This document shows, piece by piece, positions 11,030 to 18,366 of a stretch of DNA of 64,000 nucleotides. The notes beneath the pieces are model-generated. The model saw only the letters and a list, made by a program, of their open reading frames with translations. It searched no databases and had not been told where the DNA came from. Made by a program: the position numbers and the translations under genes. The number at the start of each line of letters is the position of its first letter. Within the stretch, counting starts at the first letter, position 1. The DNA comes from Candidatus Nomurabacteria bacterium (GTDB lineage: Bacteria; Patescibacteriota; Minisyncoccia; Phycocordibacterales; UBA5272), in contig JAQBRF010000004.1 in NCBI GenBank assembly GCA_028286645.1, positions 337,536 to 401,535 on the forward strand, read 5' to 3'.

Positions 11030-11110
11030 CCTGCCCCGGTGGCGAAATTGGCAACAGAACAAATGCGCTAAGTGCGTCTACCAATTTCGTAAGTACATAG
11101 GGAGGTGAGA
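11030..11110 (+). pseudogene. tRNA-Leu 5' fragment plus fold-back (pseudo-tRNA / att remnant)
   Basis: 'tgccccggtggcgaaattggcaacag' copies tRNA positions 1-26. It is followed by 'agtgcgtctaccaatttcg', the inverse of the D-arm. No complete cloverleaf forms. Confidence 0.5.
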
Positions 11111-11137
11111 TAAAAGAGAGTAAAAATTAAATATTTG

Positions 11138-11221
11138 CCCAGGTGGCGAAATTGGTAGACGCACTTGCCTTAGGAGCAAGCGCCGCAAGGCATGAAGGTT
11201 CAAGTCCTTTCCTGGGCACCT
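11138..11221 (+). tRNA. tRNA-Leu (anticodon TAG)
   Basis: Acceptor GCCCAGG/CCTGGGC. Anticodon stem-loop ACTTGC-CTTAGGA-GCAAG. Long variable arm (type II). Confidence 0.85.
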
Positions 11222-12825
11222 AATAATACATTTTGGTCCGCAAGCGTATCAAAAGGTGTATTAAACGTTGATTTGTATACCTTTTTATCTTTTATATAAA
11301 AGTTCAAGAAGATCTTTTTAAGGAAGAAGTCTAGTTCTTCCATATTCTTGATAGAAGCTAGTGTTTTAGGCATATTTTCCATTAGTTCAATGAACTTTTC
11401 AAAAGTTAAAATGCTTACTTTATCATTTTCGTAAATTATCCTAGTTTTCTTCTCGTCTTCTTCTATTAAATTAATATCTCTTTCAGCTTTTTCTAGATCT
11501 CCTCTATAAAACTTCTTAATGTTTTCTGCTTCGTCGCTTAAAAGGAGATTCTTTGTCTTCTCTATCTTTTCTTCGGCTCTAACCTTTTCGGTTCGCAACG
11601 TCAAAAGTTTTTCCTTTGCTTGATTAATACGGTCTGAATGTACTTTTTTTATTTCCTTTGTATAGTGCTCATAACTTCTTTTACTAGAAAATGGTTTCTT
11701 TTCTAAAAGGTGGTATATGTAATCTAAAATTACTTTAGCTCTTATAGATTTTCCATATCTAGGACAATCACGATTATCACACCTATAGTAAAAATATCTT
11801 ATTGTGCCTTTTTTAGTTTTTTTAGCAGTTATTCCTGCTTGCAAAGATTCTCCACATTCGCAAATTACAGCGTCTCTTAAAAGACTTGCTATTATGTCCT
11901 CTCCTTTTCTATAGTTTCGAGCAAGTTTAAGTAAATCTTTATTTCCAGATAGTCTATTAATCTGCATAAATTCTTCTGTGGTTACCATAGGAATAAAATC
12001 GTAATATTCCATTAAGTTAACTACATTTTCTCCATATTGGAGTACCCCAGTATAAACAGGATCTCTTAAAATATATTGGACCCTCTGTTTGTTCATTGTA
12101 AAGAATCTTTCTGACGATTCCGTATTGCTATGAAAATATTTATTACTTATAAGATACTCAGAAATCTGGTCCAAAGTTTTGCCTTCCAATCTCATTTGGA
12201 AGCCTTGCTTCAGTAATACATAATTATTTCCGTCTGGACGTAAATAACCGTTTTTATCTTTTATATAACCGTGTTTAGAGATATTTACATATTTACCTTC
12301 TGCAAGACTTAACCTATTCCCTCTTTTAACATTGACACTTAATTTATCTGAATATTCCTTTGAGAGAGCAAACATAATTCCTAGGAGCAACTTACCGCTT
12401 GCGTCATTACTAAATGTAAAACTTACAAACTTTAAATCTTTGATTATGTCCTTATCAACTAGATCTATAACCTCTCCCGCCTCTTTCATATTTCTTGCTA
12501 GTCTGTCCGGGTGCCACGCGATAACCCCGTCATATTTACTAGCACTTATATCAAGAAGCATTTTAGTAAACTTAGGCCTTATTCCTGGCTCTTTAGCACT
12601 TTCTGCTTCCTCTATTATATCTGCAAACTTAAGTTCATTCTTTCTTGCGAAATCCCTGCATTCCGTGATTTGATCCTCAATGGAACGTATTTGTTTACCG
12701 GTCTCGTCGGTTGACTTTCTTACGTAAATAACATACTTATACTTTTCGGGAGTATATGCCACTTTGTCGTTCTGGGCCGATTTTAGTAACTCCAAAAGTT
12801 CTTGTGGAGAAGTAGGATTAAACAT
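11200..12825 (-). CDS. large serine recombinase (integrase)
   Basis: N-terminal resolvase domain YVIYVRKSTDETGKQIRSIEDQ with the catalytic Ser. 541 aa, with a Cys-containing zinc-ribbon region and a coiled-coil C-terminus. The 3' end overlaps the tRNA-Leu 3' end. Confidence 0.8.
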   Translation of the reverse strand: MFNPTSPQELLELLKSAQNDKVAYTPEKYKYVIYVRKSTDETGKQIRSIEDQITECRDFARKNELKFADIIEEAESAKEPGIRPKFTKMLLDISASKYDGVIAWHPDRLARNMKEAGEVIDLVDKDIIKDLKFVSFTFSNDASGKLLLGIMFALSKEYSDKLSVNVKRGNRLSLAEGKYVNISKHGYIKDKNGYLRPDGNNYVLLKQGFQMRLEGKTLDQISEYLISNKYFHSNTESSERFFTMNKQRVQYILRDPVYTGVLQYGENVVNLMEYYDFIPMVTTEEFMQINRLSGNKDLLKLARNYRKGEDIIASLLRDAVICECGESLQAGITAKKTKKGTIRYFYYRCDNRDCPRYGKSIRAKVILDYIYHLLEKKPFSSKRSYEHYTKEIKKVHSDRINQAKEKLLTLRTEKVRAEEKIEKTKNLLLSDEAENIKKFYRGDLEKAERDINLIEEDEKKTRIIYENDKVSILTFEKFIELMENMPKTLASIKNMEELDFFLKKIFLNFYIKDKKVYKSTFNTPFDTLADQNVLLGAQERT

Positions 12826-12854
12826 ATACAGATTATAACCTTCTAATGAAGAAA

Positions 12855-13148
12855 TTACCTTCTAAATAATTCCGGGAATCTATTAAAAAGGTCCTTATCT
12901 TCTTCGTCTTTTTTGATTGCTTTAAAAGAAAGTGAGACTAGACTTCCTATAATCTTGGCTTGATCTGGTGTTATATGATTTTTCCTAAGATTATTAATTG
13001 TATCCTCTAGTAAGACTAAGGCGTCTGGCACATTTGTAACTCTTAGGGATTTCAACGGCCGGTAAGTGATTCTCGGTTTAAGAGCCTTTCCACCTTTTAT
13101 AATTGCCTCTCTTTTTAATTCAGCCACCTCGGGATTATGAGTAAACAA
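12855..13148 (-). CDS. hypothetical small protein co-oriented with recombinase
   Basis: 97-aa ORF lying 30 nt upstream of the recombinase. Confidence 0.4.
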   Translation of the reverse strand: MFTHNPEVAELKREAIIKGGKALKPRITYRPLKSLRVTNVPDALVLLEDTINNLRKNHITPDQAKIIGSLVSLSFKAIKKDEEDKDLFNRFPELFRR

Positions 13149-13560
13149 AACTCAAAGTTAATCATTGCGTTGGCATTACATTGTTCGTTATTAGATTTTT
13201 TGAATATACATTTCATAAGTTATTGCTTGTAAATTAGCTTTTAAGATCTGAATAAATTGGTATGATTTGAGGTCATAATCAAACGAAAAACGGACCTGAA
13301 CTTACTTATCCCGTGAGATAGCTTGTTCAGACCCGTGAATCTGTCTAGCTTTTTATAACTAGCTTTGTTTTCCCTGGACCATATCTTAAGGCTTTTTCAA
13401 GATTAGGGTCGATCAGTAAAACTATTTGATTATCTTAAGTGTAGCTTATATTCATATCTTGTAAATTGCTTATATTTCTTACGAGAGAATAATAAGATAT
13501 ACTTGCATTACAACTAAATATATTAGTGGCCTAACCCCTAAGCAATTAGAGTATGGTCCA

Positions 13561-13700
13561 AATCGCGACAAACATAAAAAACCTATCATTAGGGCGTTTG
13601 TCGCGGTATACCGGGAAACTGGTATACAGGCCTTCGGGCCTTCCTAGTGGTAGGCTTTTTCTGTCTCCACTTAGATTTATAAATTAAACGCGACAAACAA
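13561..13700 (+). promoter_or_regulatory. three copies of 'cgcgacaaac' (two direct, one inverted) up to the start codon
   Basis: aatCGCGACAAACat ... gGCGTTTGTCGCGg ... aaaCGCGACAAACaatttATG. A UUCG-tetraloop hairpin (aggccTTCGggcct) lies in the same region. Confidence 0.4.
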
Positions 13701-13703
13701 TTT

Positions 13704-14135
13704 ATGGAAAAGCACGCTTCTCTTATTAAGAAAGTCTCAATATATGTCATTATTGGCTCTATAGCAGTCATAGCCCTAATTATCTCTATAAGTAGTGGAG
13801 AAGGTAGTACTTCAAGTAAAACAGCGACTACAACCTCAACAATAGCCACACGGCCTAAAATTGGAGAGGAAGGATACATTAAAACAACATTGAAATATCC
13901 TTTCTTAGCTGTAGATAGAGAATCCTACGATCAGATAATGAAATCAGCAGTAGCAAAGGACGATCGAGGAATTGCTGAAGTTATAGCCGGTGGGGGAGGT
14001 TTCTTTGTGGACAATGGTACTAAAGTCCTTGTCCTAGACCAAGAGTTTGGATCTAGGAAAGTGCGGGTGCTTGAAGGTGATCAAATTAATAGGACTGGCT
14101 GGTTAGTAATGGAGTGGATCTCAAAGGAGAAATAG
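13704..14135 (+). CDS. hypothetical membrane-anchored protein with Thr-rich linker
   Basis: N-terminal TM helix, TATTTSTIAT linker, GGGGFF motif. Confidence 0.5.
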   Translation: MEKHASLIKKVSIYVIIGSIAVIALIISISSGEGSTSSKTATTTSTIATRPKIGEEGYIKTTLKYPFLAVDRESYDQIMKSAVAKDDRGIAEVIAGGGGFFVDNGTKVLVLDQEFGSRKVRVLEGDQINRTGWLVMEWISKEK

Positions 14136-14171
14136 TCTTCGTAACTTTGTGTTTACTTGCTCGGTCTAGTT

Positions 14172-14948
14172 TTAGATCTTTACGAGAATAAAACCTATTT
14201 TTTCTCTCACGATTCCGTCATACTTACCTTCTACTAAGTTTTCGAATACTGGCCACGGCTCATAATATGTATAGCTAAAGCCATTTGCACCGTGATTAGT
14301 ATTCTGTTTAGTGGTTTCACTTAGATTTGGATACGCCAAAATAAACGCCATTTCTTCAATTACGTACTTAATAGCAATAGGTACTTTGCTGTTAATGTCT
14401 TCTCCTTCTTGGAGGCGATTCTTTAGGACCTTAGCCGTTGTAGTATTTATATCTTTATGAAACTCTAGATTTTCTTCATATAAGGTCATTAGACATTCAT
14501 ACTCTTTTAAATATGTCTCGTCCTTATAAATGTCTACCCAATCTAAGAAAATAACCTTACTCTTATTTTCTGGTTCTTCTATTTTTATTCTCTCTAAAGC
14601 TGCAAGACAATGATTCCTTAATCGATTCCTATCTAATCTTGCTTCTCTTAATACTTTGTCTTCAGAATATCCTTTAGCACGAAAATTATGCTTAGCTGGA
14701 CCGTCGGTAAAGAAAACTGAGACTCTATTTGAGAAGTTGAGTGAAAAACGCAGCATTCTATATATATTTTCTCTATTGTAATATCCATTGTTTAGGCAAA
14801 TTGCTAAAAGTAAATCTTGTTTTCTATTCAGAAACTCCACACCTCTCTTTCTTATAGGTAACCCTTCGTCATTTAGAATAACCACTGCTTGCCAGTTATG
14901 ATTTTCAACTCTCTTATTTAATCCAGCTATTTCATTTTTTAGGTCCAT
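14172..14948 (-). CDS. tRNA-dependent cyclodipeptide synthase (CDPS) homolog
   Basis: LLLAICLNNGYYNRENIYRML aligns gap-free to the CDPS pocket motif (YvmC [21 protein letters not shown]; AlbC GISAGNSYF). RVSVFFTDGPAKHN aligns to SVSVLLAGHEAAN. AIKYVIEEMAFILAYP aligns to the CDPS Y-x-x-x-E motif (AVEYVIAELPFFIGAP). Comparator sequences are from memory. Confidence 0.65.
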   Translation of the reverse strand: MDLKNEIAGLNKRVENHNWQAVVILNDEGLPIRKRGVEFLNRKQDLLLAICLNNGYYNRENIYRMLRFSLNFSNRVSVFFTDGPAKHNFRAKGYSEDKVLREARLDRNRLRNHCLAALERIKIEEPENKSKVIFLDWVDIYKDETYLKEYECLMTLYEENLEFHKDINTTTAKVLKNRLQEGEDINSKVPIAIKYVIEEMAFILAYPNLSETTKQNTNHGANGFSYTYYEPWPVFENLVEGKYDGIVREKIGFILVKI

Positions 14949-14950
14949 AT

Positions 14951-15388
14951 TTATCTTGCCATTACCACTCTTGGTTCTCCGTCCCCAAAGTAATCTTCTT
15001 TTCTCGATTCAATTTTAAATCCTAGAGATTCATAAAGGCTAATTGCTTTAAAGTTATCTGGGTGTGTTACAAGATCTATCCTTTTTACTTCTCCTATTTC
15101 CTTTAAGATATAATCCATAGCTTGCCTTGCTATTCCTTGTCTCTGAAACTCTGGAAGGATTAATATTCCACTTATATAAGCGTGGTCCGGCGATTTCATT
15201 TCATACATTACGTCACCTGCTATCTTACTGTCTTTCTCAATAATATAAACCGGTCCGTCATTTATGGCTTTTATCCATTCGGATTCCTCAAGCATTGCAG
15301 AATAAGTTTTAGATCCTACAATACTTTGCTCTATAGAGATAAGAGTAGGAATATCTTCAATTATTGCTTTTTTATATTTAAGTTCCAT
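14951..15388 (-). CDS. GNAT family N-acetyltransferase
   Basis: Motif A YISGILILPEFQRQGIARQAMDYIL and the AISLYESLGFK tail. 145 aa. Ends 3 nt before the CDPS start. Confidence 0.8.
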   Translation of the reverse strand: MELKYKKAIIEDIPTLISIEQSIVGSKTYSAMLEESEWIKAINDGPVYIIEKDSKIAGDVMYEMKSPDHAYISGILILPEFQRQGIARQAMDYILKEIGEVKRIDLVTHPDNFKAISLYESLGFKIESRKEDYFGDGEPRVVMAR

Positions 15389-15390
15389 AT

Positions 15391-15870
15391 CTAAATTATA
15401 CTCTTATATTTTTTCATAAACTTCTGTCTATCTTGGGGAGTATCAAACCAAAAGATTGTATAGTACTTTTTCTTTCCGCTTCTTATTAATGCTTCGTGTC
15501 TATGGGTGCCGTCTCTTACCGAAAGAATAGGCCAAGGGCGCGGGTTAGCAATTAACGCCGGGACTTCCCACCCTTTTTTTATTTCTTTTACCATAGCATT
15601 CACCCTTTTGTTAAACTTCTTTAAAGATTCTGGATATTCCATTCCTTCTTCTGGGCCACAACAACGCACTAACTCTTTTAAAGGAAAGTTAATTGGCCCC
15701 ACCCAGGAGTGATACCCTTCTTCTTTACGAAGTTTCAGTCCTCTTGCCATATTTTTATTGATTCCTGGACCGTGGAGAAAGGCAAAGACCCATTCGTCTA
15801 GCCTCCCTTTCTTTGTATAGGCTTTGAGTTCTTTGATAGAGAAATCTAACTTTTGTTCTGTTTTTGTCAT
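15391..15870 (-). CDS. ParB/sulfiredoxin-fold domain protein
   Basis: C-terminal ILSVRDGTHRHEALIRSG matches the ParB/Srx DGxHRxxA core. Ends 3 nt before the GNAT start. Confidence 0.45.
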   Translation of the reverse strand: MTKTEQKLDFSIKELKAYTKKGRLDEWVFAFLHGPGINKNMARGLKLRKEEGYHSWVGPINFPLKELVRCCGPEEGMEYPESLKKFNKRVNAMVKEIKKGWEVPALIANPRPWPILSVRDGTHRHEALIRSGKKKYYTIFWFDTPQDRQKFMKKYKSII

Positions 15871-15938
15871 TAAAGAAGTATACCAGTTACGTTTTAACCA
15901 CTTAAAAGGTAATAAATTAAGGGTGTATAATTAGTATT

Positions 15939-16187
15939 ATGACCACTATCAGAGAAGAACGTATTTTAAGGAGAAAGTTCTATGTTTTAGATAAAATTGC
16001 TAAACAGTTGGATCAAGTACCTGGAACGAATATTATATATTACACTCAAGATCCTACAGAGTACTTAATGAACGGCCTCCAATATAATGAGTTAATCCCA
16101 GGACCAGCAGACGAAGTTAAGATTCTAGAACTCTTTAATTCAGAGGATATTCTAAAAATTGAAAGTAATTACGACGAATATGAGTAG
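15939..16187 (+). CDS. small protein, putative antitoxin partner of PIN protein
   Basis: 82 aa. Lies immediately upstream of the PIN gene. A TATAAT sits 9 nt before its ATG. Confidence 0.35.
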   Translation: MTTIREERILRRKFYVLDKIAKQLDQVPGTNIIYYTQDPTEYLMNGLQYNELIPGPADEVKILELFNSEDILKIESNYDEYE

Positions 16188-16246
16188 AAGAGTACTAAGA
16201 TTAAAAATAAATAGAAGTAACTTTGAGTTATTATATAGTGAAATTA

Positions 16247-16788
16247 TGAAGAAGTTGTCCTTCATAGATACTAAAATACGGATTTATATTGATACAAATA
16301 TTTTTGGGAGAGCGATAGACGGTAAAATGGACCAGACAAACACAGAGTCAATTGAACGCATTGTTTCTAAGAAGAATATTAGCCTATATACGTCTGAAAA
16401 AACCAGACAAGAAATTAAAAATAATCCAAACAAGGGCGCGCAATCCTATTTACAATTTATTGTTAATTTAGTTACTGTTATACCGGAAGAACATTTCATA
16501 AAAGAAACCTCTGTAAGTATAGGTGAAGCGACACTAGGTTCTGTAACTATTGGAGGTACAACTACACAAGAGGATAAAACGTTTACACAACTTTCAGTTA
16601 TTTTCCAACAGGATGACGCAGAGCATATATTTCAAGCTATAAAAAGTAACGCACAGTATTTTATTACTCTTGATCAGAAAACGATTATCAACAAAAGAGA
16701 CGAATACAATAAACTTGGTTATCAAACAAGGCTGGTCACCCCTTTAGATCTTGAAAAAATACTATTTGCAATAGAGGATAACAGCTAA
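16247..16788 (+). CDS. PIN-domain protein (VapC-like nuclease with insertion)
   Basis: IYIDTNIFGRAID is a canonical PIN N-terminus. Later acidic residues at DDAEHIFQAI and FITLDQK. Start chosen at MKKLSF. Confidence 0.55.
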
Positions 16789-16792
16789 ATTA

Positions 16793-17338
16793 CTAGTAGG
16801 TTTTTACGTCGTAATCTCCTGTATCTTTATTATATGTAGTATGGATACTTTTTACTTGCTTATTAGAAACTTTTGCCATTATGTTTAAGAACTTTATTAG
16901 GTTAATTGCTATTAAATATTCATTCTTCTTAAAATCAGAGGTGAAATAAAGATAGGTTAGTTTACTCTTACTGTGGATAGTGTGGAATGTGTAAGAATGA
17001 ATAATAAGATTTAAAAGAAGTGACAGCTTTATGCTTATCTTTTCTGGTTTTTTAAAATCAAAAAGTTCTGTAAAATCGAATACCGGACCACGTCTCTTGG
17101 AGTTTCTTCTATGTCTTATTACAGATACCTTTGTATCTATTACTTTATCGGGTATTTTACGTGCTTCTAAGAGTTTTCTAATAGAGAACGTTATGATAAA
17201 AACCTTTATTTCAACTTTAGAAATGATTTCGTCTAGTTTGTCGTCTTCTAAGCTATTAATGTTAATTTTTTGTAACTTCTTTATGTAAGAAATGTCTCTT
17301 TTTATAATTTGCCTCCAATAGTAAGATTCAAAAGCCAT
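16793..17338 (-). CDS. hypothetical protein, very AT-rich
   Basis: 181-aa ORF, Lys/Ile-rich. Confidence 0.4.
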   Translation of the reverse strand: MAFESYYWRQIIKRDISYIKKLQKININSLEDDKLDEIISKVEIKVFIITFSIRKLLEARKIPDKVIDTKVSVIRHRRNSKRRGPVFDFTELFDFKKPEKISIKLSLLLNLIIHSYTFHTIHSKSKLTYLYFTSDFKKNEYLIAINLIKFLNIMAKVSNKQVKSIHTTYNKDTGDYDVKTY

Positions 17339-17965
17339 TTCGTGTCGTATTATATATAACTATAAGTTCAATACATTCACCCCTATTAAATAGTAATTAT
17401 TTCTTCCTGCCCAAAGTAACAATATCGCCATTATTTGCAATGACTTGTTGCTGTGGCTTATTATGTGGTACTTTAGGTAAACCTTGTACGACGTCGGTAA
17501 AATTATCTTTTTTCATATATACTAGAAGTATATCAAAAACGTATAGCCAAACCAGCCTTTTTCCTATCTACGCTTATAAAATCAGACATTATGCTATTCC
17601 AATCTCTAAACTTCTCAACGTTATTTGACACTAAATCAAAAAGTTCAAGTGCTGTATGATAGCGGGCACAGCAAAAAAAACCATAAGGTCTTTTGTTTTG
17701 CTATGCCTAGGAAGTAAGTGGCCTACGCCACTTAAGGAAGGACTTAAAAGTCCGGAGTATTTTTTTGGAAACTCCTAAAAATGACGAGGAGCAATCGGCA
17801 AACTTTTCTAAGCGACGGCGAGAAAAGATTTGTCGGAAAGATTCCTTTCCTAGATACACCAACATTTCTTCCAATAATATGCTAAGCAAATGATTTAGCT
17901 TAACATAAGAACAGCAAGAATTGGACTATAATTTTTTATGAGAAAATATAACTTTAAATCACTCC

Positions 17966-17994
17966 TTGACTTTCTATATAAGTTATGTTACAAT
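17966..17994 (+). promoter_or_regulatory. near-consensus sigma70 promoter
   Basis: TTGACT, 17-nt spacer, TACAAT. Then AAAGGAG RBS and the ATG at 18030. Confidence 0.65.
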
Positions 17995-18029
17995 GTAGAT
18001 AACCTAGTACTTACACGAAAGGAGCACTT

Positions 18030-18299
18030 ATGGACTCAGACTTAATTGAAAAGACACGACGGGAAACGGCCAGCCAAGTTCTGGCAATTACAACCGTGGT
18101 GTTACAAGCAATGTCAGCCATGACCAATCTCGGAAGCATTACTCCCTACTGGATGATGACAATAGGGTTTGCAACCGCCACAGCAGTTATGTGGATTAGG
18201 CGCAGCGCGAAAGGAGATGGAGGTTATTCTCTCCCCGGCGCAGTGATATGGCCCATCACCACACTTCTCATATTCCTGCATGGCATAGGCAGTCTTTAG
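18030..18299 (+). CDS. small membrane protein (2 TM)
   Basis: 89 aa, two hydrophobic helices. Strong promoter and RBS. Confidence 0.55.
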   Translation: MDSDLIEKTRRETASQVLAITTVVLQAMSAMTNLGSITPYWMMTIGFATATAVMWIRRSAKGDGGYSLPGAVIWPITTLLIFLHGIGSL

Positions 18300-18366
18300 C
18301 AGATGCAAGTAAGTGACCCCAGAGACTTTGGCAACTTTGGGGCCATTTTTGTATTATCATAAGTAA

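Follow-up and report, generated by a model that had tools for sequence, protein, structure and literature searches.

A homolog of the tRNA-dependent cyclodipeptide synthases (CDPSs) encoded by a Candidatus Nomurabacteria bacterium carries a cysteine, Cys51, where the family has its catalytic serine nucleophile (S37 of AlbC), and this cysteine is the conserved hallmark of a family branch that surveys filtered for the serine would have dropped. In the 2018 census of Gondry et al., the largest of the family, the serine was an inclusion criterion, and sequences lacking it were removed (PMC5816076). No description of a natural Cys-type CDPS was found in the full-text literature to 2026, a body of text that leaves most subscription journals outside its coverage. 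The gene lies on the minus strand of the window, that is, the whole stretch of 64,000 nucleotides that was analysed, and its product probably has the CDPS fold and is active on aminoacyl-tRNA substrates, and it would employ Cys51 as covalent nucleophile by way of aminoacyl- and dipeptidyl-thioesters. The scaffold and probably also the reaction logic are those of the known CDPSs; the nucleophile differs, and the loop that holds it has probably co-adapted. The features of the gene on which the argument turns are the following:

14172..14948, minus strand: CDPS homolog of the Cys type, 258 amino acids (PF16715, TIGR04539, AlphaFold2 model, Foldseek)
14796..14798, minus strand: codon TGC of Cys51, at the catalytic Ser nucleophile position (AlbC S37), from the codon and the alignments
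14778..14804, minus strand: nucleophile loop A49-I-C51-L-N-N54-G55-Y-Y57, from translation, clade-specific residues and covariation
14352..14366, minus strand: Y195-V-I-E-E199, with the equivalents of AlbC Y178 and E182, from profile and MAFFT alignments
14262..14267, minus strand: Y228-Y229, equivalent to AlbC Y202-H203, giving the subfamily signature N-Y-Y, not N-Y-H
14616..14648, minus strand: R101-EARLDRNRL-R111, basic stretch of helix alpha4 and putative tRNA-binding patch, from clade conservation

Family, fold and residue correspondence

At the family level, the product of the open reading frame 14172-14948 has a 100% identical twin at NCBI (P0001), annotated only as 'uncharacterized protein JWN37_776' and derived from a Candidatus Nomurabacteria bacterium MAG (514-kb contig). 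The reading frame is intact and full length. Its 258 amino acids match the Pfam family PF16715 with 65.3 bits, against a cut-off of 27 and with 208 of the 220 profile positions covered, as well as the NCBIfam family TIGR04539 (tRNA-dependent cyclodipeptide synthase) with 96.4 bits against a cut-off of 45. The AlphaFold2 model, for which 34 homologs were used as input, reached a mean pLDDT of 94.4 and a pTM of 0.92. The model and its Foldseek matches place the protein in the Rossmann-type fold that resembles the catalytic domain of class-Ic aminoacyl-tRNA synthetases. When the model was compared to the PDB with Foldseek, the top 46 matches were all CDPSs (S. haemolyticus, YvmC, BtCDPS, AlbC, Rv2275), the best of them being 6ez3 (E 5.6e-12, TM 0.85). 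Structures of TyrRS ranked after the CDPSs (E about 3e-3, TM 0.46), an order that is typical for the CDPS family. The possibility that the protein is itself a class-I aminoacyl-tRNA synthetase of the TyrRS/TrpRS type was rejected, because HIGH and KMSKS are absent from the 258 amino acids and no aminoacyl-tRNA synthetase family of Pfam or NCBIfam is matched.

Four alignments place Cys51 at the position held in CDPSs by the conserved catalytic serine. At the nucleotide level, the plus strand has GCA at positions 14796-14798; read on the minus strand, this is the Cys codon TGC of residue 51 of the reading frame. In a phmmer search against the PDB, the 'aiCLnN' stretch of the window protein pairs with 'AISLGN' of ParcuCDPS. 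A profile built from 34 sequences pairs Cys51 with the Ser of 'GISPFN'/'GISPFT' in BtCDPS, YvmC and the S. haemolyticus CDPS, and aligns Y195..E199 with 'YVLAEL' and Y228-Y229 with 'YH'. Aligned to AlbC ('GISAGN'), this profile matches C51 to S37, N54 to N40, Y195 to Y178 and E199 to E182. Finally, an independent MAFFT alignment, made with AlbC and 150 full-length relatives, pairs S37 with C51, N40 with N54, Y178 with Y195, E182 with E199, Y202 with Y228, H203 with Y229 and G35 with A49. The AlbC sequence used as query gave a score and coordinates identical to those of the PDB copy 3oqv, and it agrees with every mutated position given in PMC3105412. Among the relatives that cover the nucleophile column, only C or S is found, bar one probable misalignment.

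The sequence-only reading had claimed that Cys51 corresponds to AlbC S37 and that N40 is retained downstream, proposing a multiple alignment as the check and conceding that a profile alignment might move the catalytic Ser elsewhere. The first correspondence is borne out by the phmmer, profile (CDPS structures and AlbC) and MAFFT alignments and the second, with N54 as the retained Asn, by the profile and MAFFT alignments; the multiple alignment, run with the 150 relatives and AlbC, returned the same pairing of residues. No invariant Ser occurs elsewhere in the Cys clade in the alignment of 34 homologs, and therefore the objection of a misregister fails. An artefact of another kind, namely a sequencing or assembly error, could be suspected from the fact that a single-base change converts AGC or TCC into TGC and from the origin of the sequence in a MAG. 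Against this explanation, and against a misaligned motif, stand the agreement of four alignment methods and the recurrence of the same Cys in dozens of assemblies that were obtained independently, in different studies and from different phyla, by which the artefact reading is already refuted and its probability reduced to a negligible level.

Two groups of solved enzymes help to locate the protein within the family. ParcuCDPS, from Parcubacteria bacterium RAAC4_OD1_1 (PDB 7QB8), also comes from a candidate-phyla-radiation bacterium and is the best single-sequence PDB match of the window protein (E 1.3e-6 to its variant 7QAY), a match of low identity that covers only query residues 42-204; its nucleophile is Ser. 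This enzyme is an experimentally active cyclo(His-Pro)/cyclo(His-Glu) synthase of the XYP subfamily (PMC5816076). Among solved structures, the best profile matches of the window clade are the NYH CDPSs (YvmC, BtCDPS, S. haemolyticus CDPS and AlbC), which share with the window protein the fold (TM 0.77-0.85, normalised to the target), the equivalents of N40, Y178, E182 and Y202 and, for the most part, the basic alpha4 helix. The NYH enzymes have a Ser nucleophile, a Gly at -2 and H203, and the window protein differs from them at all three positions. It further differs by a longer loop before the Y228 strand and by an extra N-terminal extension of about 35 residues, which is structured and conserved across the Cys clade.

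Conservation and origins of the cysteine type

The cysteine is an invariant trait of the lineage. All 34 homologs that match at E 2e-38 or better, the most distant with 36% identity, have it in the nucleophile column within a C-L-N-N-G-Y-Y motif, and 23 other residues are equally invariant in this set. The Cys codon is TGC in the window and TGT in nine related loci, with synonymous variation also in the flanking codons, and two further genome loci carry the motif CLNNSY(Y/F). These data bear directly on the idea of an inactive pseudoenzyme, or of a decaying gene, that would have lost its nucleophile. Such an idea may draw on the missing canonical Ser, on the splitting of the gene into two reading frames at one related locus (L011) and on the mobile or accessory context of many loci. 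However, it is made very improbable by the invariance of Cys and 23 further residues over such a range of identity, by the synonymous codon change at and around the Cys site, by the intact reading frame and very confident model of the window protein, and by the competence of Cys as a nucleophile at this same site in AlbC (PMC3105412). The initial hesitation between a natural variant of CDPS chemistry and an inactive or repurposed homolog is in this way partly settled: the invariant Cys, the synonymous codons, the retention of the other catalytic residues and the thioester chemistry demonstrated in AlbC S37C (PMC3105412) favor the natural variant and disfavor the inactive homolog. The spread of the trait over a whole clade, its two origins and its coupling to the loss of Gly at -2 go beyond the sequence-only reading.

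The extension of the Cys type beyond these close homologs was evaluated by an exhaustive profile search of 1.84 billion cluster representatives (50% identity), which yielded 672 CDPS-like clusters. The best 150 of these 672 representatives comprise 27 with Cys, 92 with Ser, 30 fragments without the site and one probable misalignment, and within these best 150 every representative above 190 bits is of the Cys type. Judged from these sequences, the Cys type is a sizeable natural clade that accounts for at least 27 of the 672 clusters. The extra-lineage members that were sampled are all bona fide Pfam CDPS matches. Where a genome record names the host, it belongs to Doudnabacteria, Nomurabacteria or other Patescibacteria, except for a single MAG of Bryobacterales. 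As a separate observation, six Ser-type relatives, P0107 (795 aa) and P0120, P0152, P0157, P0166 and P0171 (449-500 aa), are two to three times as long as a normal CDPS, and their CDPS domain appears to be fused to other domains.

Neighbor-joining (NJ) trees, computed after taking out the tested columns and carrying no support values, contain two separate all-Cys clades, one with 42 to 46 sequences including the query and the other with five (P0049, P0063, P0094, P0108 and P0135). Fitch parsimony on these trees gives Ser as the ancestral state and two changes to Cys. The members of the second clade are CDPSs of about 225-260 amino acids with the motif (V/I)P(L/I)-C-P-x-N-G-(Y/H)-F, exemplified by the gene at 241-921 of L012, the short contig of P0049. 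Bearing Pro at -2 and Gly at +4, this clade is placed among Ser-type NYH enzymes, a nesting that implies an independent switch from Ser to Cys.

The exchange of the nucleophile is coupled to changes in the loop around it. At -2, all 51 Cys types possess Ala or Pro and none possesses Gly, the residue found in 71 of 82 Ser types; at +4, Gly is present in 48 of 51 Cys types versus 7 of 86 Ser types. The window protein follows this pattern, with A49 in place of the conserved Gly of the family (AlbC G35), G55 in place of S41, and N54 at the N40 position between them. The Fisher p values for these two positions are about 1e-25, a statistic that ignores shared ancestry, and the recurrence of the coupling in two clades is a stronger argument for it than the p values. 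Because the G35A mutant of AlbC is 'poorly active' (PMC3105412), the change at -2 seems to compensate for the exchange by adjusting the loop to the sulfur atom, and neutral drift seems a poorer account of it.

Genomic setting of the gene

In the window, the CDPS gene is the last of an apparent three-gene operon with 2-nt gaps, in which the ParB-like gene is followed by the GNAT gene and this in turn by the CDPS gene. The elements of this setting are:

14951..15388, minus strand: GNAT N-acetyltransferase, 145 amino acids, generic RimI/NAT-like (Pfam/NCBIfam)
15391..15870, minus strand: protein of 159 amino acids, weakly ParB-like, with a 'DGTHR' motif (phrog_1033, E 0.004, a weak assignment)
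11200..12825, minus strand: large serine recombinase (Resolvase + Recombinase + Zn ribbon) bordering a low-GC island
11137..11220, plus strand: tRNA-Leu (TAG anticodon), probable integration target of the island

The GNAT gene lies immediately upstream of the CDPS gene, the 2-nt gap being confirmed by the stop and start positions, and the 159-residue protein has no match in Pfam, NCBIfam or the PDB. The window is chromosomal, with IF-2 and RbfA upstream and pseudouridine synthase, topoisomerase I, RpoB and RpoC downstream. Its GC content falls to 0.32-0.35 over about 11.2 to 18 kb versus about 0.41 in the flanks, and this low-GC stretch, taken as 11137-18300, starts at the tRNA-Leu gene and lies between rbfA and the pseudouridine synthase gene. 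The 3' end of the serine recombinase gene overlaps the tRNA-Leu gene. This combination of low GC content, tRNA-Leu and overlapping recombinase indicates that the stretch 11137-18300 is probably an integrated mobile element that carries the CDPS operon as cargo. No tRNA-derived direct repeat was found as an att site at the far end of the island, as expected with a serine recombinase, and the right boundary is thus drawn solely from GC content. The PADLOC models of defence systems gave no match on the island proteins, the search for phage copies of the CDPS gave no match, and the search for plasmid copies returned only Ser-type CDPSs with 24% identity or less.

Two further observations were made in this region. 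Positions 11032-11051 hold a 20-nt copy (19/20 identical) of the 5' end of tRNA-Leu (11136-11155), located 104 nt upstream of the complete tRNA gene. This copy, on which ARAGORN calls no tRNA, may be the remnant of a tRNA-Leu gene disrupted or duplicated in an earlier integration. On the island itself, an ORF of 82 amino acids at 15939-16187 (+) overlaps by 29 nt an ORF of 209 amino acids at 16159-16788 (+), which displays weak PIN-domain matches (E about 1e-3, under the Pfam cut-off); both ORFs may constitute a toxin-antitoxin pair.

The neighborhoods of other Cys-type genes were compared by an all-against-all BLAST of the ORFs of 12 loci, in which no genes beside the CDPS were shared beyond pairs; the contexts vary from locus to locus. 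The GNAT and ParB-like genes were considered as conserved partners and rejected, since among the 12 loci they are paired with the CDPS in the window alone and so do not belong to any conserved system. N-acetylation or self-protection would be conceivable links between this pair and the CDPS product. Likewise, no tailoring enzymes are conserved beside the gene in these loci, and hence no pathway context backs a diketopiperazine product. Several of the other loci look mobile or tRNA-adjacent. In L003 (5875-6789) the CDPS gene is directly downstream of tRNA-Leu(GAG) and near a pseudouridine synthase, in L007 (6001-10141) it has a relative of the window's serine recombinase at a distance of 1.8 kb, and in L013 (2086-4248) it adjoins a Transposase_mut gene. 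In L011 (5989-6785), from MAG WY2.bin78 with about 1.8x coverage per contig name, the CDPS is contained in two overlapping ORFs, a split that reflects either a frameshift in a pseudogene or a faulty assembly.

Active site, proposed mechanism and significance

Outside the nucleophile, the catalytic apparatus of the family is retained. The Tyr, Glu and Tyr that are catalytic in AlbC (Y178, E182 and Y202) are present as Y195, E199 and Y228, and in the MAFFT alignment these three residues and N54, the equivalent of N40, each occur in 47 of 47 Cys-type sequences. From the signature of the NYH subfamily (N40, Y202 and H203), the window protein keeps N54 and Y228 and has Tyr at position 229. At this position, 38 of 47 Cys types have Tyr, and 94 of 101 Ser-type neighbors have His. 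Since its closest relatives are NYH enzymes, the window protein seems to belong to a branch that derives from the NYH subfamily and bears the signature N-Y-Y.

The putative tRNA-binding patch is recognizable in part. In AlbC, the basic helix alpha4 has a role in tRNA binding, and R98 and R99 are the most important residues of the patch (PMC3105412). A basic residue at position 104 of this helix is found in 100% of the clade and at positions 101, 107, 109 and 111 in 67-88%, while the columns of R98 and R99 correspond to N112 and H113 in the window protein, in a helical register that is uncertain. Regarding the substrate pockets, the P1 sequence L-A-F-T-W-F-I-Y hardly varies within the clade, a sign that its members may have the first substrate in common. 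As a weak lead from sequence comparison, on which no conclusion is built, this P1 most resembles LGFPWFMF and LGFPWLVF, which are motifs that accommodate Pro or Leu according to Table 2 of Gondry et al. (PMC5816076). P2 reads T-K-V-N-E-W-P and holds a Glu at AlbC position 204, where Ser-type neighbors have Arg or Lys. The positions specific to the clade are N53, T81, G83 (within an invariant 'TDGPA'), Y141 and Y229; relative to AlbC, the clade-specific changes are G35 to A/P, G39 to N, S41 to G, V67 to T and H203 to Y. A second conserved Cys, C114, was considered as a partner thiol and rejected, as it is absent among the clade-specific positions.

The capacity of a Cys at this site to act as nucleophile has been demonstrated in AlbC of Streptomyces noursei. 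The S37A mutant is inactive (PMC3105412). The S37C mutant, which has Cys at the CDPS nucleophile position like the window protein, partly keeps its activity, at a level below wild type, and shows label retention like wild type (PMC3105412). Moreover, the Phe-thioester on C37 of this mutant was sequenced by MS/MS (PMC3105412), so that both thioester formation and partial activity with Cys are established there by others. According to PMC12945691, 4Q24 is the structure of AlbC S37C with a covalent analogue. The two proteins have 16-18% identity in the Foldseek alignment, and they differ in that AlbC S37C is a laboratory point mutant of a Ser-adapted site with G35 and S41 intact, whereas the window protein is natural, carries A49 and G55 and has Tyr in place of H203.

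On these grounds we infer that the window protein is active, that it uses tRNA substrates and that its product is a cyclodipeptide. In the proposed mechanism, the acceptor end of the first aminoacyl-tRNA would dock on the basic alpha4 helix, with the aminoacyl group lodged in pocket P1, and the thiol of Cys51 would attack the ester to form an aminoacyl-S-enzyme thioester. The free amine of this intermediate would then attack another aminoacyl-tRNA, the second, which Y195 and E199 would hold in place, to generate a dipeptidyl-S-enzyme, and an intramolecular aminolysis aided by Y228 would release the cyclodipeptide. The nucleophile loop would have been rebuilt around the larger sulfur, with Ala or Pro substituted for the otherwise conserved Gly at -2, and in most cases Gly for the Ser at +4.

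Exchanges between Ser and Cys nucleophiles are found in other enzymes, such as the 3C proteases of chymotrypsin fold and the Cys-containing thioesterase domains of some NRPS/PKS. In such exchanges, the scaffold is homologous and the covalent acyl-enzyme mechanism is kept while the oxygen nucleophile is substituted by sulfur. The folds and substrates of these enzymes are unrelated to those of the CDPSs, and they serve only as precedent for such swaps being functional and able to alter the product.

The Cys51 nucleophile would also fit an enzyme that keeps the capture of aminoacyl-tRNA and has been repurposed for another outcome, be it the release of a linear dipeptide by hydrolysis, the transfer to an amine, thiol or peptide acceptor, or the replacement of tRNA esters by thioester donors. 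The clade-specific substitutions of the active site and the invariant 'TDGPA' are compatible with such a change of function, as are the Glu of P2, the structured and conserved N-terminal extension and the GNAT N-acetyltransferase ahead of the CDPS in the window operon. The crippling effect of G35A on AlbC (PMC3105412) points in the same direction, and since the Cys clade always has Ala or Pro at this position, its substrate pocket must differ from that of AlbC. Other features counted against an AlbC-like activity are the N112/H113 pair in the columns of R98/R99, the Tyr in place of H203 and the reduced activity of S37C. Nevertheless, the residues to which peptide-bond formation and cyclisation are assigned in AlbC (Y178, E182, Y202 and N40) are strictly kept; the 12 loci have no conserved partner gene in common, neither for a carrier protein nor for an enzyme that makes an acceptor, and the GNAT is specific to the window. 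Repurposing, the main rival reading, is consequently regarded as unlikely, and a thioester-based cyclodipeptide synthase is retained as the probable identity of the window protein.

A bolder proposal, decidedly speculative and rather improbable, is that the Cys-type CDPSs form a distinct subfamily, absent from the family surveys consulted, concentrated in the candidate phyla radiation and often found in mobile contexts, that arose through at least two convergent changes from G-x-S to P/A-x-C and that possibly reaches products or acceptors inaccessible to the Ser type. If this were true, the thioester chemistry may allow transfer to nucleophiles other than amino acids, difficult cyclisations or the use of thioester donors. 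CDPSs have been defined mechanistically by their Ser acyl-enzyme, and a natural Cys branch means that the catalytic repertoire of the family is wider than catalogued. The Cys-type enzyme would offer a natural thioester-forming scaffold for the trapping of intermediates and for biocatalysis, and the coupled change of Gly to Pro or Ala makes it an experiment at hand for learning how an active site adjusts when sulfur takes the place of oxygen. A Cys nucleophile may also suit the habitats of these organisms, which are largely anoxic. With regard to the organisms themselves, the Cys branch points to the production of small molecules by members of the candidate phyla radiation, bacteria with reduced genomes about whose chemistry very little is known.
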